IMG/VR virus record: IMGVR_UViG_3300025803_001552 | Location: 1 to 24,242 of that record | Reading direction: 5' to 3' (one strand) | Source: a virus | Taxonomy: Duplodnaviria > Caudoviricetes | Length of the DNA: 24,242 bases | In this document: positions 1 through 23,349 of the stretch, piece by piece | Layout: every line of letters starts with the position of its first letter | Position numbering within the stretch: position 1 is the first letter of the stretch | Made by a program: the position numbers and the translations under genes | The notes under the pieces: model-generated | The model's input: the letters and a program-made list of their open reading frames with translations, nothing else | The model's database searches: none | What the model was told of the DNA's origin: nothing

Positions 1-93
1 CGCTCTGCTATCGAAATAGCGATTGTCCACAATCATAACTACTGCGAACACGCTCGCTGCTAAGATCGAGCCAAAGAATATACGTCGCTTCAT
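1..93 (-). CDS. 5' part of an exported or membrane-anchored protein with a twin-arginine-like N-terminus (runs off the window; not in the ORF track)
   Basis: Manual translation from the ATG at 93, 8 nt after the tatC stop: MKRRIFFGSILAASVFAVVMIVDNRYFDSRA..., open to position 1. It has RRxFF followed by a hydrophobic stretch. Confidence 0.65.
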   Translation of the reverse strand, partial: MKRRIFFGSILAASVFAVVMIVDNRYFDSRA

Positions 94-101
94 TCCGTGT
101 T

Positions 102-968
102 TTACCACCATATGCCATGCTTCATTAGCGTGCTACGCACCCAACGATACGCAGCGACCGGTCTACTCACTACCCAGAATATACGATTCCAGATTGCCCT
201 TACCCACCTGCTGATCGTTTTGAACCACAGGTAATTACCTTCCTCTGGATTCACCGTCCACGCAGCAAACATACCGACTTCGTACAACGCCATAACCGGA
301 GTAGATACCAGCAAGAAATTTATCCCGTCCGCTGTGGGCGTCAGGATGATTCCGAGAAACGTGGCGAACAACGGTGACAGCAACCTGCCCCATCGGAAAT
401 GCTTGTACCTCAATAGCCTTGCTCTAGCGAGAATATACATCGCCGTCGGAATCATGAACACGAAACTCATTGCCGACATTAGAGCGGTAACTAGGTCAAG
501 ATAATTGCCTATGTCGATAAGCGGTACAGCGACGTTTGAACCGAAGTTGAGCAGGAACTTCAACCCGACTGGCAGCAGGACGTAATACACGAACATGATG
601 CCCAGAACATAGGACACCATTGCTGAGATCGTTACAGCGGTCAGGAACCGCCAGAATTGAACAGGGAGCCAGGGCTTGAGTAATGACAAGACGCTGTAAG
701 CGATCATCGGTATCGCTGCGAACGTCCCGCCTTTCATAACAATCGAAATCGTCGCCCCCATCATCGACAGAGGCGACGTGAATACCGGCTTACCGTCAAA
801 CGGTGAAAGCCTATCTCCCGCCGGTGCTAATAACCATTGGAAAATTTCGTCCTTGAAATAAAAGCTGTATCCAGAACCCGCGCCCGCGAAAACGAGAATC
901 CAAAAGACTCTCAGCCAAAACTTATTCTTGAACGAGCGTTCCGGTTTACCGCGTCTCCACGGCAGCAC
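102..968 (-). CDS. tatC: TatC-family twin-arginine translocase subunit (divergent)
   Basis: About six hydrophobic segments with TatC landmarks: IFQWLLAP, FTSP, GIMFVYYVLLPVGLKFL, IDIGNYLDLV, FVFMIP, ILTPTAD, PVMALYEVG. GTG start 2 nt after the upstream stop. Confidence 0.9.
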   Translation of the reverse strand: MLPWRRGKPERSFKNKFWLRVFWILVFAGAGSGYSFYFKDEIFQWLLAPAGDRLSPFDGKPVFTSPLSMMGATISIVMKGGTFAAIPMIAYSVLSLLKPWLPVQFWRFLTAVTISAMVSYVLGIMFVYYVLLPVGLKFLLNFGSNVAVPLIDIGNYLDLVTALMSAMSFVFMIPTAMYILARARLLRYKHFRWGRLLSPLFATFLGIILTPTADGINFLLVSTPVMALYEVGMFAAWTVNPEEGNYLWFKTISRWVRAIWNRIFWVVSRPVAAYRWVRSTLMKHGIWW

Positions 969-970
969 TT

Positions 971-1168
971 TTACTCAGCTTTAGACGTTGCAGGTTCGGC
1001 GGTCTTGGACTCTGCCTCTGCCTTTGCTTCTGTGGCTCGCTTCTTGCTGCCACCGAAGAAGTACCGGAATACGTTTTTGATTCCGAACATCATGTGAAGC
1101 CCAATGCCGATAACAAGTACACCGACAAGCACTCCGAGGAAAATTTCATTTCCGAATATTGCAAGCAT
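971..1168 (-). CDS. Small single-TM protein, TatA/TatB-like
   Basis: 65 aa with Glu8, an N-terminal TM segment, an FG hinge (MFGIKN), a short basic/amphipathic segment and a charged low-complexity tail. GGAGG RBS; directly upstream of tatC. The TM is longer than in canonical TatA. Confidence 0.5.
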   Translation of the reverse strand: MLAIFGNEIFLGVLVGVLVIGIGLHMMFGIKNVFRYFFGGSKKRATEAKAEAESKTAEPATSKAE

Positions 1169-1182
1169 TTAGACCCTCCAGG

Positions 1183-1422
1183 TTATTTGCTTTTTCCTGT
1201 TGAGAACAATCGTTCCCTTAAACCTTGAACAGACTTTTTCGCACGAGGTGTGCCTAGAACGCCCGTTCCTAGTCCCATAACAGCACCAAATATACCGCCT
1301 CTGGCGTGATGCGTCTGCACCCCTATTTCATCGCCAATGGCTTTCAGAATTTGGTTACTGATAAGAGCAAGTATAAAAGACGCTGCGCTTGCGCCTATAA
1401 GCCACCGCAGTTGAAACAACAT
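1183..1422 (-). CDS. Small two-TM membrane protein with glycine zipper (holin-like architecture)
   Basis: 79 aa; hydrophobic N-terminal helix, second helix with G42-x3-G46-x3-G50-x3-G54, basic C-tail; start 2 nt after the upstream stop. Confidence 0.55.
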   Translation of the reverse strand: MLFQLRWLIGASAASFILALISNQILKAIGDEIGVQTHHARGGIFGAVMGLGTGVLGTPRAKKSVQGLRERLFSTGKSK

Positions 1423-1424
1423 CG

Positions 1425-1748
1425 CTAATCGTCCAACGCTCGCCGTACACGACGAAACAAACTGTTGCCGAGTTTCAGAATACCGTCTTTGACTTCTTCT
1501 GCGCTTGACTCTTTGAACCGCTCAACCGTGTCCCAGAATTCAGCCTTTGCATCATCTAGAGATTCGATCTGGCGTCGCTGTGGCTCCGGTTCCATAACTT
1601 CAACCTCGTCCGCTTTTTTGTCGATTGTGGGTTCCTCAACTTTTGGAGCGGGTTTTGCCTTTTTCCTTGATGGTCGTTCTTTTATTTCGTGTGGGTTAGG
1701 TTCCGCATTGACTTTGGCTGCGGTAACCTTTTTCCTGCTATCAGACAT
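1425..1748 (-). CDS. Hypothetical protein (charged, disordered N-half; helical C-half)
   Basis: 107 aa, GGAG RBS, tightly packed in the operon. Confidence 0.7.
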   Translation of the reverse strand: MSDSRKKVTAAKVNAEPNPHEIKERPSRKKAKPAPKVEEPTIDKKADEVEVMEPEPQRRQIESLDDAKAEFWDTVERFKESSAEEVKDGILKLGNSLFRRVRRALDD

Positions 1749-1762
1749 TTTCTGACTCCGCT

Positions 1763-2119
1763 TTATTTGATGCTATCGACCGACGTTAGTAAATCGCCAG
1801 ATTGCTCAGAGGATTTTTCAGCAGCAGCTTTATTTGCAGCAGCTACCGCCGCATCACATTTTTTCCTAATTGTTCGGACGTCATCAGATGCTATTACGTT
1901 CGCCCACTCGTCAAGAATCTCTTGCTGCGTTAAGTCTTGTGCCTCAAACGTAATCTCGGCTTCTTTTCCTATGTAAGTACATAAAGTATCCACCGCTCCA
2001 ACAAAGCCCAAATCCCACGGCGTACCGTAAGCTAAAAATAATTCTTCATTCGATACAGGAAATCGTTTTCCACCCGACGAACGATTGTCAGTCACCGAAA
2101 CTTTTACTGTTACAGGCAT
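1763..2119 (-). CDS. Hypothetical protein (possibly fibre-associated)
   Basis: 118 aa; the start overlaps the stop of the upstream fibre gene. Confidence 0.7.
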   Translation of the reverse strand: MPVTVKVSVTDNRSSGGKRFPVSNEELFLAYGTPWDLGFVGAVDTLCTYIGKEAEITFEAQDLTQQEILDEWANVIASDDVRTIRKKCDAAVAAANKAAAEKSSEQSGDLLTSVDSIK

Positions 2120-2811
2120 CTTATTTCCGTCACTGTCATAGACGTGTAATCATTTTGATTTGCGTACCCACCTGGAGAACCTTTGAAATCAAATTCATAA
2201 GTTGTACTCGTGTTTGCACCTGCAATTTCAAAATGTGTTATTTGATGTATGTCGTACCCTGATCCAGCTGTTAATACATGAGAAGTTTCTTTTACGGTTG
2301 AACCAGCAATATCTATTTTCATCGACAGAGTTACGGTTGTACTAACGTGTGCTTGCGTTTTCATACAAGCAGATATAAACATTCCGTATTGGGCAGTTCC
2401 GGTGCTATCACTTGGTGTTTTTGTGAGGCTTAAGGCTTGTGCAGCAACTCCATAGGCAGCATTGAGAGTTTGGGAACCACTTGCCTCGTCTGTACTTGTA
2501 GAACCCTCTGACTGAGTGTGAGTGTGCGTTGTATCTGCAACAGTTTTCTCACTTCCACCGTTGGCGTAATACCGCAAAGTGCCGTCAGTGTTCGCAGCAA
2601 AACGTGTGTGACCAGTAGCAGGGGCAGACAGCGCACCTTGTTGATCTAGGTCGATGTAATCCAGCGAGTCGAGCGTTGCACTCCCATCACCAGCAGTTCC
2701 GGTGTGAGTATGACCGGCAATTGAATCTAGGTTGTCGCGAATCTGCGTGTTGAAATCGTCGGCAGAAACCGTTTCCTGATCGACCCATGTTTTAGGTGTT
2801 GTCCATGCCAT
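2110..2811 (-). CDS. Putative tail fibre / receptor-binding protein
   Basis: N-terminal WTTPKTWV...FNTQIRDNL anchor-like segment, HxH motifs (GHTHTG, THTHT), Thr/Ser-rich beta-type C-terminal domain; located at the end of the tail module. Confidence 0.65.
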   Translation of the reverse strand: MAWTTPKTWVDQETVSADDFNTQIRDNLDSIAGHTHTGTAGDGSATLDSLDYIDLDQQGALSAPATGHTRFAANTDGTLRYYANGGSEKTVADTTHTHTQSEGSTSTDEASGSQTLNAAYGVAAQALSLTKTPSDSTGTAQYGMFISACMKTQAHVSTTVTLSMKIDIAGSTVKETSHVLTAGSGYDIHQITHFEIAGANTSTTYEFDFKGSPGGYANQNDYTSMTVTEIRCL

Positions 2812-3110
2812 TAGTGCGTATGTCCTATTACTGAGGCTGTTTTCTCAGTATCGCCATTGGCTCTGTATCTAAGTGTCCCGTCTGTGTGCATAGCGAATCT
2901 AACGTGACCTGCTGCTGGTTCACCTAAAGCCGAACCTGTTTGCTCAATGTCTGCGTGGTCTAATGATGTAAGTGTAGAACTGCCGTCACCTGCTGCGCCA
3001 GTGTGCGCGTGCGCTCCAAGACTATCTAGATTATCCCGCACATAAGTATTCATCCACGCAGCGTCGATAAGATCGCCCACGACCATTTTAGGTGTTGCTG
3101 ACCACGTCAT
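2811..3110 (-). CDS. Short fibre-like protein, paralogue of the N-terminal ~100 aa of 2110..2811
   Basis: Start re-called to ATG 3110 (MTWSATPK) by alignment with MAWTTPK. Shares RDNLDS, HxHTGxAGDGSxTL, GHxRFA, TDGTLRY and EKT. TAATG coupling to the next gene. Confidence 0.75.
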   Translation of the reverse strand: MTWSATPKMVVGDLIDAAWMNTYVRDNLDSLGAHAHTGAAGDGSSTLTSLDHADIEQTGSALGEPAAGHVRFAMHTDGTLRYRANGDTEKTASVIGHTH

Positions 3111-3525
3111 GCTCGACGTTCTCCCGTTGCAAATCTTCCACCGTTTCACCTGGCAACCAGTTTCGAGTGATAGCCCGATCGCTTCGAGCAGCAGGGCGAA
3201 TGACCAGTTCTGCTTCTATGGCGGTGCGTTTCTGAGGCATACGAACATGACGCCACGCAAAATTCACAGCAGCGTTTCCACAATTCAAACACCAAAACCG
3301 GCGTTCTGTTTCCGACACCAATTGCGCCCCTGCACAGTCTGGACATTCTGCAATCCATCGACCGTGATTCACGTATGCCACTATCTCGCCGTCTGTCACG
3401 CCGTCCTGCGCTGGTGCTTGCATAGATTTTCGCGAAGCCGAGTATCTGACAAACTCGCCGTAAGGCAGCCTAAATATATCCTCGTGAGTGATGATCTTAT
3501 CGTCGGGAGTGTCAGGCTTTCTCAT
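3088..3525 (-). CDS. Zn-ribbon-containing tail-region protein
   Basis: VNHGRWIAECPDC...FWCLNCGN (two CxxC pairs); overlaps both neighbours. Confidence 0.75.
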   Translation of the reverse strand: MRKPDTPDDKIITHEDIFRLPYGEFVRYSASRKSMQAPAQDGVTDGEIVAYVNHGRWIAECPDCAGAQLVSETERRFWCLNCGNAAVNFAWRHVRMPQKRTAIEAELVIRPAARSDRAITRNWLPGETVEDLQRENVEHDVVSNT

Positions 3526-6080
3526 GTTGGGTTTAACCTTGTTTCGCTTCCAAGTAGTGAATATCCGAGCGTCCAGAACGCAGAGAACGCAGAAGCCGAT
3601 GACAACTCAAAATGAGCGGTAAGGCGTTTAGGGACAATTTCATAAGCCCAGTTTTCCACGAAGAAATCTTCATCGACTCCAAGCCCTGCGTTATTGTTTG
3701 CCTCAATGTTTACTCTATCCGATATGGTTCGACTCAGCACTTCAACTGCGTGATACAAATCCTTTTGACCGGTAACGCTGATACCGAGCATCGGCGAAGG
3801 GTCTTTATATAACGCCAGATTATGCAGCACCCATTGTTGCGCAGTTGCGGTGTCTGGAATATGAACAGCCAGATCAGAACGTGCGAATGTCCGTTGACCA
3901 TAAACACTCTGGCTGGTGGCGTTCGCTGCTTGAACGGTCACAGGGTCTAACTCGTATACCTCTGTGCCACGGCATTGCAGCTTGGTGAGATAAACGGTCA
4001 CGGCAGCGTCGTTTGTTATCTGAATCTTTTTAGATTTTGAAAAGTCGGTTTCGACGATGGTTAGATCGGAAGTGTAGTCGGTTCCTGTGCCGTCGCTTGC
4101 GCCGTTTGCTGTGTAGTCCGTAGTGGCTACCAGCGCAGTCCAAGCAGCCACGCCGGTTCCGTCTGTACGGCTTGCAGGGTTCGGGTAGTTAGCCCAATAG
4201 GTCACGGTGTCCCCTGCTTCAATAGCAGGTGCATCTCCGGTCGTATTCGCTTCCGAGTGTGTCCAAAGCGTCACACCTGCGTTAGTTGCTTTTTTTCTGA
4301 CGGTGGCGCGAAAATCGTTATAGATAAATCGCAGCGGGTCTAATTCGCTGATCGACTCATATCGCAACACACCTTTCGCCGTCGGGTCATCTGAGTATTC
4401 GGCTTGCGCCACGATGTTCGGCAAATTCAGTCTGTGGTCACGATCTTGGAAATCAATCTTGCCTTCTTTAGTCTCAACGAGCAGACCTGATTCTGATTCC
4501 TCGACACGCCTCAGGGCGGTTATAGCTTCGAGAGAATCTACTTCCCAGTTTTTGAACGTCTGTGTTCCACCGTCAACGATGCGCTGTGTCGCACTCCAAC
4601 CGGCAGCGTCAAGAATATCGTCTATTGCGTCACCGCTCGTAATGCTCGCCTGATACGGGATGTTTACTTCGTTTTGCGTCAGTTGACCGAACACGCCCAG
4701 ACAACTAATCGTTGCGGTCTTAATGCGGTTGTTGCCCACGCTCGGCGCAATGCGTTCAATGTAGCCGGTGAACATGTCACGAACAACTGGCGATTCGCTG
4801 CGTACTTTGACCGAGCGATTCGGCACAAGGTTTCCTGTCAAAACTGAGGAAGTATTGAACGGGGAATAACGGTCATCGTCGTTTGCAACCGTGAGTGTCA
4901 TTCGCGCAGCCTTCACCTTGCCGGTGAGCGAACTGGCGACGTCACGACCGCCTTTGATGGATACCTTCAAAACATCCGAGGTGATGTTGTCGTAAGTACC
5001 GTCGTACTTTCCGTCGTTGCCCCAATCGACAAATACTTTTGTGCCAATGTCCAACTGGTCATCTTCCCAATTGGCTTTAGTTTTGCCAACGCCCTCAACA
5101 ACGAACAACGAACCAGCAACGAAGTTGGAACCACCTGACACTGATAAGACGATCTGCGTGACTGCTGATGTATCTTTCCAGCGCATCGAGTTGAGTTCTA
5201 AAACATCTTCGGCAGCAGCACCGGTACTCAATAAGGTTTTGTGCCGGTCAGTTTTCGTGTATTCAAATATCGTGGTCGTGCCACCGCCAAAGACGTTAGC
5301 CGTTGCAGATGCCCCAGGTATTTCATACAGCGTCCGGTCAGACGTTCTCTGCGCTGCTGTAAGCGTCGCTCCATCACCGTCTAATCCCTGACTGTCGTAA
5401 TTAGCAGCAGTCGTGTCGCTGTTGAGTTGAATATCTAGCCCTGATGTTGCAGCGACTTCATCGGTTCTGGCGTACACCGTAATCTTGCAATTTTGGTATT
5501 CACCGGAAACCGGCAGCGTTATGGTGGCAGCGTCACTCTCTAGCTTTTTGTAAGCAATTACATTCTTCGGGACGTGGTAAGCAGAAAACATCGACCCTGC
5601 TACAAAGCCGTCTCCGGTCGATGGAAGCAAATCATATTTGGTCAACGCAGCGATGTTGTCACGGCGTTGCGATGTGATTTGGACTTGATCGGATTGACCG
5701 GTGATTGCAAGCGAATAACCGTCGTTTGCAGAATCGGGCGCGTTATAAATCGTCTGAACAAACGCACCAAATACGTTAGCCTCGGCGTTGGCTGCGGGGC
5801 AGACTCCGATTTTTCTATCGCTTCCGCTTTCCGCTGCTTTGACTCCAGAATCACCCCTGATGTACTGGCGAGCGTAGTTCCCGTCCACGGTGTCGTTATT
5901 CAACGCAACGACCAGATCAGCAGTATCAGCAACAGGGTTGGCGCGAAGATTGGCGACTATTACGACGTCACCTGCAAGCTGCGGCAGACTCTGTGCGCTT
6001 AACGCAGTTCCAGTTGCGAGTGGGCTTGCAACTCCACCAAATACGGACTCATTAAAATAGGTATTGTTGAACTCAGCCAA
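3522..6080 (-). CDS. Large minor tail (tail-tip/hub-like) protein with two N-terminal repeat domains
   Basis: 852 aa, TTG start. Internal repeat in the first ~330 aa (LNNDT..NY...PAANAEANVFG / LNSDT..NY...PGASATANVFG). The rest resembles siphophage tail-tip proteins (VDW..DG, MFTGYIERI, SQSVYGQRTF, FWTLGYSLLG). Confidence 0.75.
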   Translation of the reverse strand: MAEFNNTYFNESVFGGVASPLATGTALSAQSLPQLAGDVVIVANLRANPVADTADLVVALNNDTVDGNYARQYIRGDSGVKAAESGSDRKIGVCPAANAEANVFGAFVQTIYNAPDSANDGYSLAITGQSDQVQITSQRRDNIAALTKYDLLPSTGDGFVAGSMFSAYHVPKNVIAYKKLESDAATITLPVSGEYQNCKITVYARTDEVAATSGLDIQLNSDTTAANYDSQGLDGDGATLTAAQRTSDRTLYEIPGASATANVFGGGTTTIFEYTKTDRHKTLLSTGAAAEDVLELNSMRWKDTSAVTQIVLSVSGGSNFVAGSLFVVEGVGKTKANWEDDQLDIGTKVFVDWGNDGKYDGTYDNITSDVLKVSIKGGRDVASSLTGKVKAARMTLTVANDDDRYSPFNTSSVLTGNLVPNRSVKVRSESPVVRDMFTGYIERIAPSVGNNRIKTATISCLGVFGQLTQNEVNIPYQASITSGDAIDDILDAAGWSATQRIVDGGTQTFKNWEVDSLEAITALRRVEESESGLLVETKEGKIDFQDRDHRLNLPNIVAQAEYSDDPTAKGVLRYESISELDPLRFIYNDFRATVRKKATNAGVTLWTHSEANTTGDAPAIEAGDTVTYWANYPNPASRTDGTGVAAWTALVATTDYTANGASDGTGTDYTSDLTIVETDFSKSKKIQITNDAAVTVYLTKLQCRGTEVYELDPVTVQAANATSQSVYGQRTFARSDLAVHIPDTATAQQWVLHNLALYKDPSPMLGISVTGQKDLYHAVEVLSRTISDRVNIEANNNAGLGVDEDFFVENWAYEIVPKRLTAHFELSSASAFSAFWTLGYSLLGSETRLNPT

Positions 6081-6098
6081 TGCAATTCTTTTTCTAGC

Positions 6099-6422
6099 TT
6101 ACGGCTTTGGGTATTTGGCTTTCACCGCTGCAATATGGTCTTGCCAGGTGGTCGTGCCGTTTACAGAATCATGGTACTGCATGTCTAGCTGGTCGCCGAT
6201 GGAGCCGTAGGCTTCCCTGCGGTACGCAGCGTAGTTAGCAGACACTCCACCGTTCTCCCGCACATTTCTTTCTTGTTCCTGATTGAAGGAGTTCTGCGCC
6301 CATTCGTTGATAATCTTTTGGTACTCGTCTGGCGTGAGCGTAATCGACTCCCCATCCACCATCTTGGTGAGGGTAGGGTTGTCATTCTCGAATTGAGTTT
6401 TCCATTCTTGAAGTGTTGCCAT
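6099..6422 (-). CDS. Small tail-fibre-associated protein (assembly chaperone-like)
   Basis: C-terminal YRREAYGSIGDQLDMQYHD...WQDHIAAVKAKYPKP motif, of a type commonly seen next to phage fibre genes. Confidence 0.6.
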   Translation of the reverse strand: MATLQEWKTQFENDNPTLTKMVDGESITLTPDEYQKIINEWAQNSFNQEQERNVRENGGVSANYAAYRREAYGSIGDQLDMQYHDSVNGTTTWQDHIAAVKAKYPKP

Positions 6423-6959
6423 TTATCCTACTCCGTACATGTGAACTGTTCCTGCGTCGATGTTGCCTGAGTCAAACTTGAAACTTATTTCATCTATCGC
6501 TGCCGTTGTATTGATGTAGCCACTAGTAAAGTTGTCAATGGTAAAGTTTCCTTCATATGCGTTGTTGGTTCTTGCAATGTAGTGCTTTACGAATGTCGTA
6601 CTAGAAGGGTCATAAAGAGTTAGTACACCGCTACACGATTGGTCACTATCAAAGCCATTTGAGTAAGTCAGGGGTTGATATGCCGTACCCTGTGCTTGAT
6701 CCCAACGAGTGTCATATGCCAACGAAGTAGCAGTATCGGCTTCGTTGTGATACGCACGAAAGAATGTCGATGTAATCACTTCATTGAATCCGGTCTGACC
6801 GGATGCGTTCACTTGGAACATAAAGTCCACATTGTCGGTTTGCGGGTGCATGTTCACAAAGTGGAACTCGTAAGCGTCATACGTGCTGTCGATACCGCTG
6901 GTGAAACTCAGGGTTGAACTACTGGAAGCTGTCTGAGATGAAAGGTAAGTCAACGCCAT
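6423..6959 (-). CDS. Tail-associated ~175-aa domain protein, paralogue 3 of 3
   Basis: QTASSSSTLSFTSGIDSTYD...GYINTTAAIDEISFKFDSGNIDAG; 1-nt stop/start overlap with the upstream paralogue. Confidence 0.8.
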   Translation of the reverse strand: MALTYLSSQTASSSSTLSFTSGIDSTYDAYEFHFVNMHPQTDNVDFMFQVNASGQTGFNEVITSTFFRAYHNEADTATSLAYDTRWDQAQGTAYQPLTYSNGFDSDQSCSGVLTLYDPSSTTFVKHYIARTNNAYEGNFTIDNFTSGYINTTAAIDEISFKFDSGNIDAGTVHMYGVG

Positions 6960-7495
6960 CAGGACACCCCAAACATCTTGATTGTGCCAGCGTCTATGTT
7001 TCCGCTTGAGAATTTGAAGCTAATTTCGTCTATAGCTGCGGTTGTATTGATGTAACCGGCAGAAAAATCATCAATCGTGTAATTGTCTTTCTGAGCGTCA
7101 TTGAACCTAGCCATAAACTGCTTCACATATGTCGTATCTGAGGGTGCGTATAGTTTTAGGATTCCGCTACACGCCTGATCGTTATCGGCTCCCGTTGTGT
7201 AGGTAAGGTTTTGATACGCTGTCCCTTGCGCTTGGTCCCATCGAGTATCGTAAGCGAGTGCATTTGCTGCTGTTGTTTCATTGTGATAAGCCCTAAAGAA
7301 ACTGGAGGTTATTGTTTCATTGAAACCCGTTTGACCAACCGCATTTACTTGGAATTGGAAATTCACACCATCCGTTGAAGGATGCATGTTCGTAAACACA
7401 AACTCATAAACGTCGTAAGTTGAGTCAATCCCTGACGTAAACGATAACGACGAAGATGCTGAGGCGGTTTGTGTTGCGAGGAGTTTCTTAGCCAT
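6959..7495 (-). CDS. Tail-associated ~175-aa domain protein, paralogue 2 of 3
   Basis: Collinear with 6423..6959 over the full length; 1-nt overlaps at both ends. Confidence 0.8.
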   Translation of the reverse strand: MAKKLLATQTASASSSLSFTSGIDSTYDVYEFVFTNMHPSTDGVNFQFQVNAVGQTGFNETITSSFFRAYHNETTAANALAYDTRWDQAQGTAYQNLTYTTGADNDQACSGILKLYAPSDTTYVKQFMARFNDAQKDNYTIDDFSAGYINTTAAIDEISFKFSSGNIDAGTIKMFGVS

Positions 7496-8154
7496 TAGGA
7501 AGTCGCCACCCCGTACATTCGGACTTCTCCAGCGTCAATGTTTCCGCTGCTAAATTTAAAATCTATTTCGTCAATAGCCGACGTTGTGTTTATATAACCA
7601 GCAACATTGGATTCCATAGAGTAATTCGATGAATGATGGTTGCCTTGTACGCGAGAAACAAAGTGCTTGACGTAAGTGGTACTTGATGGCGCGTACAGCG
7701 TCAAAATCCCAGAACAACTCTCGTCGTTTTCATAGTCAAGGTTGTAGAACATATTTTGATAGGCAGTCCCTTGTGCTTGGTCGTGAGAAGCACTATAAGA
7801 AAGTGACGTATCAGTACCGGCTTCATTGTTATAAGCGATAAAGTGCGATGACGTTATAGTTTCGTTGAAGCCAGAGCCTCCAGAAGCATTTGCCTGAAAT
7901 TGCCAATGAACGTGCTGGGTGGCAGGGTGAATGTTTATAAAGTGAAACTCGTACACATCGTAAGTTGAGTCGATGCCAGAGGTGAACGACAGGGACGAAC
8001 TAGCACTCGCTGTCTGCGAACTGATGAACGTGTGAGCGTCACTAACGAGGGCAACATTCTGACCGTCTAGCGTTTGACCATCAGCAAAAGCGACTCCACC
8101 GAAACTAGCAAGAGTCGTTATATCAATGCCGTTGATTGTGGCAATATCAGGCAA
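7495..8154 (-). CDS. Tail-associated ~175-aa domain protein with a ~40-aa N-terminal extension, paralogue 1 of 3
   Basis: Same domain preceded by MPDIATINGIDITTLASFGGV... Confidence 0.8.
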   Translation of the reverse strand: MPDIATINGIDITTLASFGGVAFADGQTLDGQNVALVSDAHTFISSQTASASSSLSFTSGIDSTYDVYEFHFINIHPATQHVHWQFQANASGGSGFNETITSSHFIAYNNEAGTDTSLSYSASHDQAQGTAYQNMFYNLDYENDESCSGILTLYAPSSTTYVKHFVSRVQGNHHSSNYSMESNVAGYINTTSAIDEIDFKFSSGNIDAGEVRMYGVATS

Positions 8155-12216: not shown

Positions 12217-12621
12217 TTATGCCCAGGTTGGAACTGTCCCATCAGCCAGCGCACAAGGTACTGACCAGGTAAATTCACCTGTTGCAGATCGTGTCAGACT
12301 GTAGTCACCCAAGATCATTTCCATCGACAGTGATTGACCACTGATGGCGATGGTTACGGTTCGAGTTACTGACGTGCTGCTGATGTCTTTGAATACGGCG
12401 TGAGACTTGTTGGCAGCATCGTTATAAACACCGTTCAAAGTGAACGTTCCGTCTGCGAGAAGTTGCAGCCGTTCATTTGCTGACTTGTCTACACCGGTCA
12501 CGTTCTGCTCAGCGCGTGGCGTGTTGATGGTGAAGTCGGTCACATCGTTGCTAATGTCTCGAAGCGTCCCGCCGGAATCATCCACCGACACCGTTGCACC
12601 AAGACCACTTTCTTTAGCCAT
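12217..12621 (-). CDS. Major tail (tube) protein
   Basis: 134 aa with a tail-tube-type pattern (DISNDVTDFTINTPRAEQNVTG...DGTFTLNG); AGGAG RBS; position before the chaperone. Confidence 0.75.
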   Translation of the reverse strand: MAKESGLGATVSVDDSGGTLRDISNDVTDFTINTPRAEQNVTGVDKSANERLQLLADGTFTLNGVYNDAANKSHAVFKDISSTSVTRTVTIAISGQSLSMEMILGDYSLTRSATGEFTWSVPCALADGTVPTWA

Positions 12622-21728: not shown

Positions 21729-22220
21729 CTAGGCTTTGGAATTGCTGGCTTCGGCGTCCTCGGCTTCCATAATTGCGATCTGTGCGTTGATCATTCCGCT
21801 TTCGATCATGCGTTCTCGCATATCGCTCAGCCTAGCGTGCAACACATCCAGAGGGTCATCGCCGTTGACAAGGTTTACGTTGTTATTGTTGACCGTGACT
21901 TCCTGCTTGTTGCCTTCTCTGAATATTGGGCGACGTGCCTTTAGAACTAACTCGATGGCGCGAATGTGACCGTTTGCGCCTTCCTTCCACAGGACGCCTT
22001 CCAGCTTGTCGAGTGCATCTTCCAATGAGTCGTCCCAAGCCTCTGCGAACTCAGGATATTTGGCTCGATGACGGTGGACTGTCGCTCTTGATACATCGGC
22101 AGCCTTACACGCTGCGGACACGTTGCCGGTTGCGCCTAGCGTTTGTAGGAATAGCAGCGACCACGCGGGCGCGTGCGCAGGGAATGTCTCGTTCTTTTTC
22201 TTCTTACTCCGTCCCGCCAT
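21729..22220 (-). CDS. terS: Terminase small subunit
   Basis: HTH (FLQTLGATGNVSAACKAADVSRATVHRHR), PEFAEAWDD, helical C-part; upstream of terL. Confidence 0.8.
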   Translation of the reverse strand: MAGRSKKKKNETFPAHAPAWSLLFLQTLGATGNVSAACKAADVSRATVHRHRAKYPEFAEAWDDSLEDALDKLEGVLWKEGANGHIRAIELVLKARRPIFREGNKQEVTVNNNNVNLVNGDDPLDVLHARLSDMRERMIESGMINAQIAIMEAEDAEASNSKA

Positions 22221-23349
22221 GCCGTTCAGCCTTTTTGCCTGTGAAATCTTCCCACCGCTTTACGATCACGTCGCAGTAGATCGGGTCTATCTCTATACCG
22301 TAACACTTGCGCCCAGTTTTCTGGGCTGCGATGAGGGTAGTGCCTGAGCCGAGGAACGGGTCGAGGATGATTTGTGGGTTGCCGTAATTCTCAAAGCACC
22401 ATTCAGCGAGAGCGATGGGTTTCTGTGTTGGATGCACTCGCCCTTCACCATGCTCACTGTCTTTTATCATGCCATGCCATTTATGACGAAATACATCAAG
22501 CCGAACGCCTCTGTTCGCAAACGCTAATTCTGCACCACTGAACGTGTCACCCTCGCGCTGTTTATCCCACACAATCCAGCCGTACCCATCCATTAGAACC
22601 GAAGGGTAATAATTTGCGCCCCAAAATATGAGCGAACAATCTTCAACGGCAAATAACTGATATGAAGAGCGCGCTATGTCCGCGCTTTCATCACCTTGTA
22701 TCTCGCCAAAATCGTTACTTACTGATGCACCATCAATGCCTTCGCCTGAATGCTGTATCCCATAAGGGGGGTCAGCGAATACCATGTCAGCCTTCGCACC
22801 GTCCATCAGATACGCCACGCTCTCAGCGTCCGTCGAGTCACCGCATAACAAACGATGCTCGCCCAATATCCATAAGTCGCCAGGTTGAGTAATCGGGTCG
22901 GCTGGTGGCTCTGGCACATCGTCTGGGTCGGTTAGACCTTCTTCGGGTTCATCGTTGCCCATCAACGCATCTAGGTCAGGGAAGCCCAGCAAATCAAGAT
23001 CGAAGTCGAGTTCTGCTAATGCGTCCAGTTCGAGCGTAAGCAGACCATCGTTCCAGGTGGCGTTCTGGGCTAGCTGGTTGTCTGCTAGGACGTAGGCTTT
23101 CCATTGCGCCTCGGACATATCAGAGCGGTCGATAACTGGGACTTCTTTTAGTCCTAACTTGCGTGCTGCTGCTAGGCGTGCATGACCAGCTACTACCGTG
23201 TTGCCGTGAATGATGAGCGGGTTAGTCCAGCCAAACTCTTGGATAGATGCTGCAACCTGCGCTACCTGCTCCTCAGTGTGTTCGCGGGCGTTGTTGGCGT
23301 AGGGGAGTAGCGTGTCGATCTTGACCTGTGTAATTTGTGGTTCTGTCAC
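22204..23349 (-). CDS. ParB-like N-domain fused to a beta-class N6-adenine/N4-cytosine DNA methyltransferase
   Basis: PYANNAREH...FGWTNP...AGHARL (ParB/Srx-like); HRLLCGDS, DPPY, HPTQKP, DPFLGSGTT. Confidence 0.92.
   Translation of the reverse strand: MTEPQITQVKIDTLLPYANNAREHTEEQVAQVAASIQEFGWTNPLIIHGNTVVAGHARLAAARKLGLKEVPVIDRSDMSEAQWKAYVLADNQLAQNATWNDGLLTLELDALAELDFDLDLLGFPDLDALMGNDEPEEGLTDPDDVPEPPADPITQPGDLWILGEHRLLCGDSTDAESVAYLMDGAKADMVFADPPYGIQHSGEGIDGASVSNDFGEIQGDESADIARSSYQLFAVEDCSLIFWGANYYPSVLMDGYGWIVWDKQREGDTFSGAELAFANRGVRLDVFRHKWHGMIKDSEHGEGRVHPTQKPIALAEWCFENYGNPQIILDPFLGSGTTLIAAQKTGRKCYGIEIDPIYCDVIVKRWEDFTGKKAERHGGTE

Follow-up and report, generated by a model that had tools for sequence, protein, structure and literature searches.

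A phage TatC with replaced twin-arginine-binding residues at the end of a late operon: part of a possible Tat-derived membrane or egress device

The Tat pathway is regarded as belonging to cells and organelles; in it, TatC forms the receptor core of the TatABC and TatAC assemblies. The roles of individual TatC residues in the binding of twin-arginine (RR) signals and in the docking of TatA and TatB are set out in passages of PMC13323110, where the E. coli variant TatC E103A is a binding-negative, transport-inactive control and E8 of TatB is reported to bond with T208 of TatC. A literature search of main texts found no analysis of a viral TatC, and a term search of a 2026 review of Tat evolution returned no occurrence of 'virus' or 'viral' and four of 'phage', the latter on other matters. 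In virome papers, matches to 'tatc' were mostly primer strings. The only printed trace of a viral tatC found is the label TatC on a circular marine virus genome in a figure legend of PMC10564846. That genome resembles the present case in that a tatC was met before on a viral genome, but the legend gives the label alone, without residues, partners, clade or function.

The window analysed here is a whole IMG/VR virus record (IMGVR_UViG_3300025803_001552; 24,242 nucleotides) and not an excerpt of one. Its minus strand carries the last fibre-like gene (233 aa; 2110..2811), which ends the tail genes and is followed by five genes and a sixth, partial open reading frame (ORF), spaced by a 10-nt overlap and then by gaps of 14, 2, 14, 2 and 8 nt; this one-strand run, described in the initial annotation, was reproduced in all its coordinates and spacings. 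The members of the run, all on the minus strand, are a 118-aa protein (1763..2119, overlapping the fibre-like gene by 10 nt), a 107-aa acidic protein (1425..1748, gap of 14 nt), a 79-aa membrane protein (1183..1422, gap of 2 nt), a 65-aa single-pass miniprotein (971..1168, gap of 14 nt), a TatC-family protein of 288 aa (102..968, gap of 2 nt) and the 5' part of a single-pass miniprotein of 37-43 aa (1..111), which begins with an ATG at 93 (gap of 8 nt) or at 111 and runs off the window end. The fibre-like gene, taken from the ORF list, belongs to the same cluster (c8) as the upstream 112-aa ORF and homologues in sister contigs, and has no Pfam or PHROG match. Positions 1-4400 of L024, a contig of the window's lineage (99.97% identical) that covers the operon stretch, contain five terminator-like hairpins against a shuffle mean of 4.3, which is no excess, and the sole sensibly placed one (L024 3456-3485) lies just outside the window end, directly after the mini ORF. 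A strand switch follows the mini ORF and its hairpin in L024, in 34 of 44 loci the next ORF past TatC with 60 aa or more is on the opposite strand, and in most loci no sizeable gene of the late operon comes after TatC. RNA-library contigs cover window positions 964-1186, 1203-1529 and 2852-3045 (the last-named outside the small genes; the 79-aa gene is among those covered); since contigs cannot show transcription, they give no more than an indication of expression of the small genes.

By sequence family and by predicted fold, the ORF at 102-968 is a true TatC, which bears out its naming as a clear TatC in the initial annotation. In the Pfam HMM search proposed there, it matched the TatC family (PF00902) with an E-value of 1.6e-30 and 106.9 bits (cut-off 25.1), while its viral relatives reach 148-149 bits, and in the PDB the TatC profile matched residues 11-233 of the Aquifex TatC (E 3.7e-38). 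The AF2 model has a mean pLDDT of 82.4 and a pTM of 0.72; searched with Foldseek against the PDB, it gave seven matches at E <= 0.001, all of them TatC, with the next match at E 0.95, and the TM-scores, normalised by target, were 0.62-0.70 for the six best TatC chains and 0.36 for the fused 9e03_A chain. The viral TatC consists of the six-helix core and a C-terminal extension of about 45 residues forming two helices, which is conserved and virus-specific.

The viral proteins depart from their cellular counterparts at the twin-arginine site. In a residue census of 89 viral and 31 cellular TatC sequences (E. coli numbering), H12, E15, F94 and E103 were each present in 31/31 cellular sequences, whereas H12, E15 and F94 occurred in 0/89 and E103 in 2/89 of the viral ones. 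Position 15 is arginine in 75 and lysine in 11 viral sequences, thus basic in 86/89 and reversed in charge, position 94 is L or M in 89/89, and position 12 is L, F or I in 83/89. T208, which together with Q215 represents the polar cluster at which TatA/B dock, is kept in 86/89, the copy in the window included, as are D211 in 88/89, P48 and P209 in 89/89, E170 in 67/89 and Q215 in 63/89. The four conserved twin-arginine-binding residues are thus replaced across the clade, with the docking threonine retained. In the window's lineage E170 is replaced by M and Q215 by F, so that even docking of the TatA/B type is uncertain there. The viral TatC thus shares with cellular TatC the family, the fold and P48, T208, P209 and D211, but differs from it, beyond the signal site, in its C-terminal extension, its late-operon location, its phage-only partners and the long stem of its clade.

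In a TatC tree, 41 viral representatives form a single branch (SH-aLRT 100; stem length 0.94) beside Chloroflexota TatCs, including the canonical TatC of a metagenome-assembled genome (MAG) that also holds a viral-type copy; the cellular sample comprised 30 Chloroflexota, one Myxococcota and E. coli, and the clade may root in Chloroflexota. The viral TatCs therefore do not nest among the chromosomal copies sampled, but stand apart as one clade. An alignment-based scan found related TatC on 19 IMG/VR contigs, whereas single-protein pattern scans of IMG/VR had given no match with TatC or with the 852-aa tail protein. Metagenomes yielded 476 tblastn-confirmed stretches with related TatC, while a phage collection of 50,697 records gave four weak TatC matches (24-28% identity). 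One of these four, MT837203 (marked UNVERIFIED), was set aside, since it looks cellular, with a canonical TatC next to NrdD/NrdG and a CCA-type enzyme. The gene is internal to a 40,487-bp genome with direct terminal repeats (DTR) and is present in 3/3 records at least 90% complete (the DTR genome and two more), so that carriage of the module by related phages, on which the initial annotation had made its proposal depend, is now documented.

The tatC gene is phage DNA, neither host flank nor chimera, because the junction recurs in independent assemblies and its relatives lie inside complete phage genomes. An origin as host DNA at a prophage edge or as an assembly chimera, to which a position 101 nt from the contig end and the cellular nature of Tat had lent some colour, is scarcely credible in view of that DTR-bounded genome with its internal module and of the contigs from three other studies that span the fibre-to-tatC junction. 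A 4,750-nt contig from another study covers window positions 1-3200, and two other metagenome contigs bridge the junction with 99.97-99.99% identity. Beyond the gene at the window end lie phage-type genes (HNH endonucleases), the leftward reading in L024 continuing into them with no host junction, and the base composition is even across the fibre/tatC junction. A close match was found in one of 185,579 species genomes, on a 3.5-kb contig.

The conserved core of the module comprises four genes, which encode an acidic helical protein, a membrane protein of about 80 aa, a short-TM miniprotein and TatC. The 118-aa protein lies outside this core: its cluster (c17) is lineage-specific, occurred in 7 loci, each time as the fourth gene before TatC, and has no family match at E <= 0.001 in Pfam or PHROG, and its slot in other lineages is taken by an unrelated protein of about 100 aa (c6). 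The 107-aa acidic protein, which matches no Pfam or PHROG family, has a disordered, charged N-terminal part and a conserved C-terminal helical part, and alignments of the acidic protein show a conserved acidic helix start. An HMM of its family (c18/c2; the two clusters are related by hhalign with a probability of 54% and E 1.3e-4) matched upstream of TatC in 66 of the 69 loci that extend 1 kb or more in that direction. The 79-aa protein (family c1) has a TM helix at its N-terminus, then a further hydrophobic segment rich in Gly, and a basic tail, and relatives were found in 81 of the 84 loci that extend 600 nt or more upstream; Pfam applied to 20 members returned no family common to more than one of them, and comparison with TatA by hhalign gave 0.3%. 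For neither the 79-aa protein nor a c2 protein did the ESM Atlas give a match that reached 0.8. The name 'GlsB/YeaQ/YmgE', met there at 0.79, is a mere lead.

The 65-aa miniprotein had been annotated as a TatA/B-like protein just upstream of tatC, which is correct for layout and gene order but unsupported as to homology. An HMM of its family (A5) matched directly upstream of TatC in 86/94 loci, and 18 aligned sequences share an invariant N7 and G29 with E or D at position 8, giving a layout like that of TatA/B: an N-E pair opening the TM helix, a Gly hinge and a basic tail. Homology of this family to TatA is unsupported at the level of sequence, as the 65-aa ORF has no match to Pfam TatA_B_E, a PF02416 search of six viral genomes (G000-G005) returned 0 matches at E <= 10 while the control matched 13/14 genomes, and hhalign against TatA gave a probability of 10.8%. 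The phage proteins, 36-74 aa in length, thus resemble TatA/TatB/TatE in layout and in position directly before tatC, but most lack the length for a complete amphipathic helix, and the likeness is one of architecture only. A complex prediction for TatC with the 65-aa protein scored 0.00, which counts neither for nor against binding.

The last ORF, at the window end, was initially annotated as RR-signal cargo; its motif (K-R-R-I-F-F at the start) is real, but a role as cargo finds no support. In L024, where this ORF is complete, the whole protein has 37-43 aa and no mature domain, and the RR pair is kept in 2/8 nearby lineages (the window and L029 only), the other six having KRL, KRW, KF, KC, KW or KRY instead. 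A small TM ORF follows TatC in 44/82 loci; the mini ORF is the last gene of the operon, an accessory part and not a member of the core. Among 501 ORFs from 18 large loci, none had an RR-type N-terminus by a crude rule of our own (RR-x-hydrophobic-hydrophobic within 40 residues, together with a 13-residue hydrophobic window above 1.6).

The module occupies the region where TatC-less relatives have endolysins. Among 26 loci that share the fibre-like proteins of phrog_14820 and have at least 3.5 kb downstream, four carry TatC and 22 do not. Pfam, applied to 16 of these 22, identified Peptidase_M15_3 or Phage_lysozyme in eight, one of which also has the holin GTA_holin_3TM, and none of them in the other eight. 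HMMs of those endolysins matched 0/110 TatC-bearing loci and 12/79 loci, all without TatC; 12 of the 22 TatC-less relatives are likewise without an endolysin in the examined stretch (local HMMs, whole loci). The remark in the initial annotation that this position often holds lysis genes has thereby gained comparative support, and the slot comparison with endolysin-bearing relatives points to release as the putative function. Pfam recognised no lysis gene in two complete genomes, whose ORFs of 60 aa or more were all searched, and PHROGs recognised none among 30 window ORFs and 55 ORFs of G002 and L024, and the window has no muralytic endolysin or known holin family by either resource. The module is thus like a phage holin/endolysin cassette in its slot past the tail-fibre genes and its several small membrane proteins, but differs in having neither an endolysin nor a known holin family and in that its largest part is a 288-aa TatC homologue.

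Small-genome Chloroflexota that lack peptidoglycan are the probable hosts, although this assignment is weak. The four Chloroflexota genomes whose cellular TatCs are nearest had no transpeptidase match and one weak Mur-ligase match each, compared with 6 transpeptidase and 8 Mur-ligase matches in another Chloroflexota genome; the host-side MAGs are incomplete. The portal protein, searched against 401 Chloroflexota genomes, gave a best identity of 27% and no close prophage, and so adds no host support. A tRNA scan detected a single tRNA-His, in G002, the 9 further loci having no tRNA gene.

Just past the operon and outside the window, a VTT/DedA-like gene lies convergent to tatC on the opposite strand in 22/50 loci. 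It matches VTT_dom (PF09335) with 42 bits in G002 and 28.2 bits in the window's lineage (L024) against a cut-off of 33.9, so that its likeness to DedA/VTT proteins exceeds the cut-off in G002 but not in L024, and more than half of the loci lack it. A functional link between DedA and Tat in E. coli is said to have been described by Sikdar and Doerrler in 2010 (cited in PMC7835334).

The explanation preferred here, with a probability of about 0.4, is that TatC and the three co-conserved small phage proteins constitute a Tat-derived membrane or egress device acting late, and not an exporter of RR cargo. The four proteins would assemble into a membrane complex late in infection, in which the short-TM miniprotein may dock on TatC as TatA and TatB do; the complex could then act like a holin, by thinning the membrane and oligomerising as Tat does, and would breach or remodel the host membrane, leading to release. 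In a host without peptidoglycan, opening of the membrane could suffice for this. A more specific version, held to be doubtful, is that in a widespread clade of uncultured phages from aquatic habitats a captured TatC without RR recognition nucleates TatA-like miniproteins, opens the cytoplasmic membrane and replaces the holin-endolysin system in peptidoglycan-free hosts, probably small-genome Chloroflexota. Several observations weigh against the egress device. A TatC-based holin is without precedent, and the lysis activity is a proposal drawn from sequence comparison; the absence of an endolysin depends on the failure of HMMs in poorly known phages, is shared by the 12/22 TatC-less relatives (8/16 by Pfam), and the endolysin-bearing relatives may infect other hosts. 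The convergent VTT/DedA-like gene hints at maintenance of the membrane and not its destruction, the host assignment is weak, with a tree sample of 30 Chloroflexota and two others, incomplete MAGs and no close prophage, and E170 and Q215 are replaced in the window's own lineage.

The substitutions at the signal site are conserved in their turn, and most members of the clade retain E170 and Q215, a pattern that suits a re-specified receptor or translocase no less than a pure pore scaffold. Such a TatC would recognise a signal other than twin-arginine, possibly an acidic one, and would serve late in infection to export or insert at least one phage protein; the miniprotein would be its partner in the manner of TatA/B, and the acidic protein either an adaptor or the cargo. 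This reading agrees with a site that is altered and not decayed (positions 12, 15 and 94), with the persistence of transport and docking residues (E170, T208, Q215 and D211), with the co-conserved acidic protein and its acidic helix start, and with the DedA-Tat link said to exist in E. coli; it is nonetheless considered unlikely, as no cargo was found, none of the 501 ORFs has an RR-type N-terminus, the two complete genomes encode no recognisable exported enzyme, and E170 and Q215 are lost in the window's lineage. The private translocase for a folded late product with RR cargo, suggested by the initial annotation, has become very improbable: a true TatC family and fold, a small protein with an N-terminal TM helix just upstream and the K-R-R-I-F-F motif downstream speak for such a canonical TatA-TatC exporter, but the residues that bind the signal are replaced, one of them at the position at which E103A abolishes binding and transport in E. 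coli, TatA homology was not detected, the supposed cargo has no mature domain and keeps RR in two lineages only, and the 501 ORFs include no RR-type N-terminus.

Two further readings keep a membrane role for the module. A function in superinfection exclusion, in keeping the membrane energised, jointly with the VTT/DedA-like protein, while assembly proceeds, or in the insertion of phage membrane proteins is rather improbable; the convergent gene in 22/50 loci speaks for it, as does the ability of TatC to drive the insertion of signal peptides into the membrane, described in PMC3538955, but over half of the loci lack that gene, which is encoded on the opposite strand, and the comparison of the endolysin slot points to release. 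Improbable to a somewhat greater degree is a decoy or hijacker, in which the viral TatC binds host TatA or TatB, but not RR substrates, and host Tat export is shut or redirected late in infection. The retained docking threonine beside a destroyed RR site is consistent with it, as is the position of the clade beside Chloroflexota TatCs, among them the canonical one of the MAG with a viral-type copy; the phage genomes searched contain no TatA-family gene, and host TatA is therefore the only family member available. However, it leaves unexplained the strict co-conservation of three more phage proteins and the conserved C-terminal extension, the late operon would be an odd time for blocking host export, and Q215 is replaced in the window's lineage.

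These findings define a TatC branch that is confined to viruses, common in aquatic metagenomes and accompanied by defined, phage-only partners. It amounts to a natural experiment on the TatC scaffold, whose signal site has been rewritten in a conserved manner while the docking threonine and the structural prolines were kept, and it poses the question of what role the scaffold plays once freed from RR recognition. We know of no mechanism by which phages are released from bacteria without peptidoglycan, and how phages exit from such bacteria is the second question that the module poses. If the module permeabilises membranes, it would join the membrane-thinning model of Tat to holin biology, and if it exports cargo, it would define a new targeting signal.

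The 288-aa ORF at 102–968 of the window encodes a genuine, full-length TatC. It scores 106.9 bits against the Pfam TatC family, far over the cut-off of 25.1, and a profile built from 27 relatives aligns with residues 11–233 of the 236 in Aquifex aeolicus TatC (E = 3.7e-38), as well as to E. coli TatC chains. The AlphaFold2 model built from this 27-relative alignment (mean pLDDT 82.4, pTM 0.72) contains the TatC helices plus two additional C-terminal helices (residues 246–268 and 270–283), and retrieves seven PDB chains at E ≤ 0.001, every one a TatC, with the next match at E = 0.95. A clear TatC had been called here in the initial annotation.

The window is an entire IMG/VR virus record; it is linear, comprises 24,242 bp with a CheckV completeness of 78%, and carries nearly all of its genes on the minus strand, where they make up a phage late operon. 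By PHROGs assignment, this operon encodes the small and large terminase, portal, head protease, major head protein, major tail proteins, tape measure and a fibre-like protein, together with three tandem phrog_14820 paralogues (178, 178 and 219 aa; E = 1e-61 to 1e-63). At least 79 IMG/VR contigs share this fibre-like array, whether or not they carry the TatC module. In the window it is followed by a 107-aa ORF (6099–6422) matching phrog_9114/phrog_1787, the paralogues and this ORF together spanning 6099–8154 (−); ORFs of about 95 aa in the same slot of relatives match Pfam Phage_tail_APC. Adjoining the small terminase gene is a ParB-like N-terminal domain fused to a DNA methyltransferase (22204–23349, −; phrog_498, E = 3e-111). 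Within the fibre gene cluster, the region 2811–3525 (−) holds a 145-aa ORF with weak zinc-ribbon matches, followed by fibre-like ORFs of 112 and 233 aa with the common N-terminal motif R-D-N-L-D-S ... H-T-H-T-G/H-A-H-T-G ... A-G-D-G-S.

The last fibre-like gene (2110–2811, −) overlaps by 10 nt with a 118-aa ORF, after which ORFs of 107, 79, 65 and 288 aa follow with gaps of 14, 2, 14 and 2 nt, and a cut ORF leaving the window follows after 8 nt; the layout of this run had been described exactly in the initial annotation. Contigs from a seawater RNA-Seq library (run X20), which cannot prove transcription, span 964–1529 and 2852–3045 with 2–8 differences and take in the genes for the 65-aa and 79-aa proteins, the 107-aa gene at its 3' end and a portion of the 112-aa ORF. 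The cut ORF is complete in the sister contig L024, with 37–43 codons and a terminator-like hairpin on its 3' side. Leftward of window position 1, this contig continues past the hairpin into convergent genes for a VTT/DedA-like membrane protein and HNH endonucleases. The VTT/DedA-like gene, convergent to tatC, lies at 3722–4213 (−) of L024, about 325–815 nt past window position 1, and also at 12244–12804 of L104, a locus of the complete viral genome G002, scoring 28.2 bits in the window's lineage and 42 bits in G002. Sikdar and Doerrler are said to have linked DedA to Tat export in E. coli in 2010.

The tatC locus is phage DNA, because near-identical contigs run past the end of the window, other studies bridge the junction, and complete genomes carry relatives. 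Two other metagenome contigs, with 99.99% identity to 1–6968 and 99.97% to 1–3397, both extend beyond the window's end, while a 4,750-nt contig from another study spans 1–3200 with 50 differences and further other-study contigs cross the fibre–tatC junction at 912–2858 and 789–2540. Relatives of this TatC occur in 19 IMG/VR contigs, among them a genome of 40,487 bp that has direct terminal repeats and two more records rated at least 90% complete. All three lines speak against a host flank and against a chimeric assembly between the fibre gene and tatC. The module is found in phages with differing head and tail genes, namely the window (phrog_10 major head protein and tape measure), G002 (L104–L106; a 1801-aa protein and a weak Phage_capsid_4 match) and the complete viral genome G004 (L107–L109; GP7-type capsid, LPD38 giant protein and Peptidase_S74 fibre), and seems to be a cassette that passes from one phage type to another. 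The early region of G002 also contains a tRNA-His (anticodon GTG; L104 2532–2605, +), and no tRNA was detected in the other nine loci scanned.

A protein search yielded 158 TatC relatives, the best 120 of which share 38–98% identity and all contain PF00902, and a metagenome scan gave 476 tblastn-confirmed stretches of about 760 estimated. Among 185,579 prokaryote species (one genome each), one clade-specific pattern yielded just one close copy, which lies on a 3.5-kb contig of the Chloroflexota MAG G006; this MAG has its own canonical TatC on a separate contig. In 50,697 phage records there were only four weak TatC matches (24–28% identity). One of these four, MT837203.1 (L145; 'UNVERIFIED: Bacteriophage sp.', 7.5 kb), carries a canonical TatC (222.8 bits), a CCA/poly(A)-polymerase-type enzyme and NrdD/NrdG, and appears to be cellular DNA, or else a large phage of a very different kind, outside the viral TatC clade. 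The available text of a 2026 review of Tat evolution (PMC13673990) contains neither 'virus' nor 'viral', and has 'phage' in four places, all of them on other subjects. In the accessible portion of the literature, the sole trace of a viral tatC found is a figure legend in PMC10564846, which names TatC (PF00902) among the DRAM-v annotations of a circular marine virus; viral auxiliary-gene lists in supplements may name tatC.

A tree was built from 41 viral representatives (<85% mutual identity, from 96 sequences) and 32 cellular TatCs (30 from Chloroflexota, one from a Myxococcota MAG and that of E. coli; one unpublished genome omitted). Unpublished genomes G235, G181, G280 and G046 are included in the genome tallies (TatC scoring, portal search), and their one locus is excluded from the tree and the residue census; none of the conclusions depends on these genomes. 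The viral TatCs form one branch apart from the 32 cellular sequences sampled (SH-aLRT 100; stem 0.94 changes per column), which forks (SH-aLRT 88, the fork itself without finer order) with three small-genome Chloroflexota TatCs, including the canonical copy of G006. A Chloroflexota origin is a lead and not a result, since the Chloroflexota rows were the best scorers against the viral profile among 301 genomes and only two rows come from other phyla.

As described in a 2026 cryo-EM study of TatBC (PMC13323110), H12, E15, F94, Y100 and E103 of E. coli TatC are key, highly conserved residues holding the signal peptide, E103A serves as a binding-negative, transport-inactive control, and TatB E8 bonds TatC T208 and Q215. 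When 89 distinct viral and 31 cellular TatCs were aligned to the E. coli protein, H12, E15, F94 and E103 were present in all cellular sequences, whereas the viral ones retain none of the first three (H12 replaced by L in 40 and F in 36; E15 by R in 75 and K in 11; F94 by L in 78 and M in 11) and E103 in two (Q in 42, F in 19, Y in nine, others). Other positions are largely kept in cellular and viral sequences, respectively: T208 (30/31 and 86/89), D211 (30/31 and 88/89), P48 (28/31 and 89/89), P209 (31/31 and 89/89), E170 (28/31 and 67/89) and Q215 (30/31 and 63/89). The twin-arginine site has been lost from the viral proteins, and the window's lineage is the most derived, with K at 15, F at 103, M at 170 and F at 215. 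As the replacements at the signal site are uniform and not random, the alignment suggests new constraint rather than decay. Most viral members further possess a C-terminal extension with the motif P-E-E-G-N-Y-L-W, which the sister cellular TatCs lack.

Genes around TatC were clustered in 101 loci, followed by HMM searches against the six-frame ORFs of 99 loci, with the window's lineage counted once; a conserved core emerged. An acidic protein whose C-terminal helical part is conserved is present in 66 of the 69 loci that extend far enough upstream, a membrane protein of about 80–90 aa in 81/84, a single-pass miniprotein of 36–74 aa directly before TatC in 86/94, a small TM ORF after TatC in 44/82, and the convergent VTT-like gene in 22 of the 50 loci that extend far enough downstream. 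The acidic protein of the window is probably homologous to the commoner type, judging from their profile alignment (c18 versus c2; hhalign 54%, E = 1.3e-4). In the miniprotein, the TM helix opens with N followed by E/D and closes with glycine, N7 and G29 being invariant across 18 sequences; this layout is reminiscent of TatB/TatA with their E8 or Q8, their short helix and their hinge. The upstream protein had been termed TatA/B-like, which holds for this layout, but homology could not be demonstrated: Pfam TatA_B_E has no match at E ≤ 10 in the window and five related viral genomes, with matches in 13 of 14 control genomes, and the profile-profile comparison of the miniprotein with a TatA/TatB alignment gives 10.8%. 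The 79-aa family shares no Pfam family across more than one member and reaches 0.3% against TatA. The downstream ORF, formerly taken for a twin-arginine cargo, is a conserved miniprotein of the window's sublineage, whose N-terminus reads KRR in the window only and LRR in one other lineage, the other six having KRL, KRW, KF, KC, KW and KRY; a crude scan of 18 large loci, two complete genomes among them, found no RR-type N-terminus in 501 ORFs with a minimum length of 50 aa.

The TatC module closes the late operon: in 34 of 44 loci the strand switches at the next ORF (≥60 aa). No lysis-category PHROG was found among the 30 window ORFs or the 55 ORFs of G002 plus the L024 extension, and no muralytic Pfam domain in G002 and G004 when all their ORFs ≥60 aa were scanned. 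Among 79 IMG/VR loci with phrog_14820 fibre-like proteins, 26 have at least 3.5 kb downstream and four of these carry the module; 16 of the 22 TatC-less loci were Pfam-scanned (149 ORFs), and eight (L162, L169, L177, L200, L203, L210, L217 and L219) encode Peptidase_M15_3 or Phage_lysozyme a few genes past the fibre genes, one also GTA_holin_3TM. HMMs from those endolysins match 12 of the 79 loci, all without TatC, and none of 110 TatC-bearing loci (857 kb, 11,258 ORFs); therefore, the module and a conventional endolysin take up the same region in related genomes and were never observed together. The four Chloroflexota genomes with TatCs nearest the viral clade (G006, G167, G203 and G292) are 1.3–2.0 Mb in size and, as possibly incomplete MAGs, show no transpeptidase (PF00905) and one weak Mur-ligase (Mur_ligase_M) match each, against six and eight, respectively, in a 3.4-Mb Chloroflexota genome. 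These four may lack peptidoglycan, judging from gene content, and the pattern, read from MAGs of uncertain completeness, fits hosts without peptidoglycan, in which a phage needs no endolysin.

The private translocase for a twin-arginine cargo proposed in the initial annotation is contradicted by the sequence and is highly improbable as the function of the module. A decoy capturing host TatA/B is rather improbable. The main rival, a translocase using a new, possibly acidic, signal, agrees well with three features: position 15 shows a conserved reversal of charge, most members retain E170 and Q215, and the acidic protein is co-conserved. It is still judged unlikely. The tentatively preferred reading, with a probability of about 0.4, sees in the module a Tat-derived membrane complex belonging to the phage late programme, most likely for release, which, placed in the lysis slot, would open the membrane.
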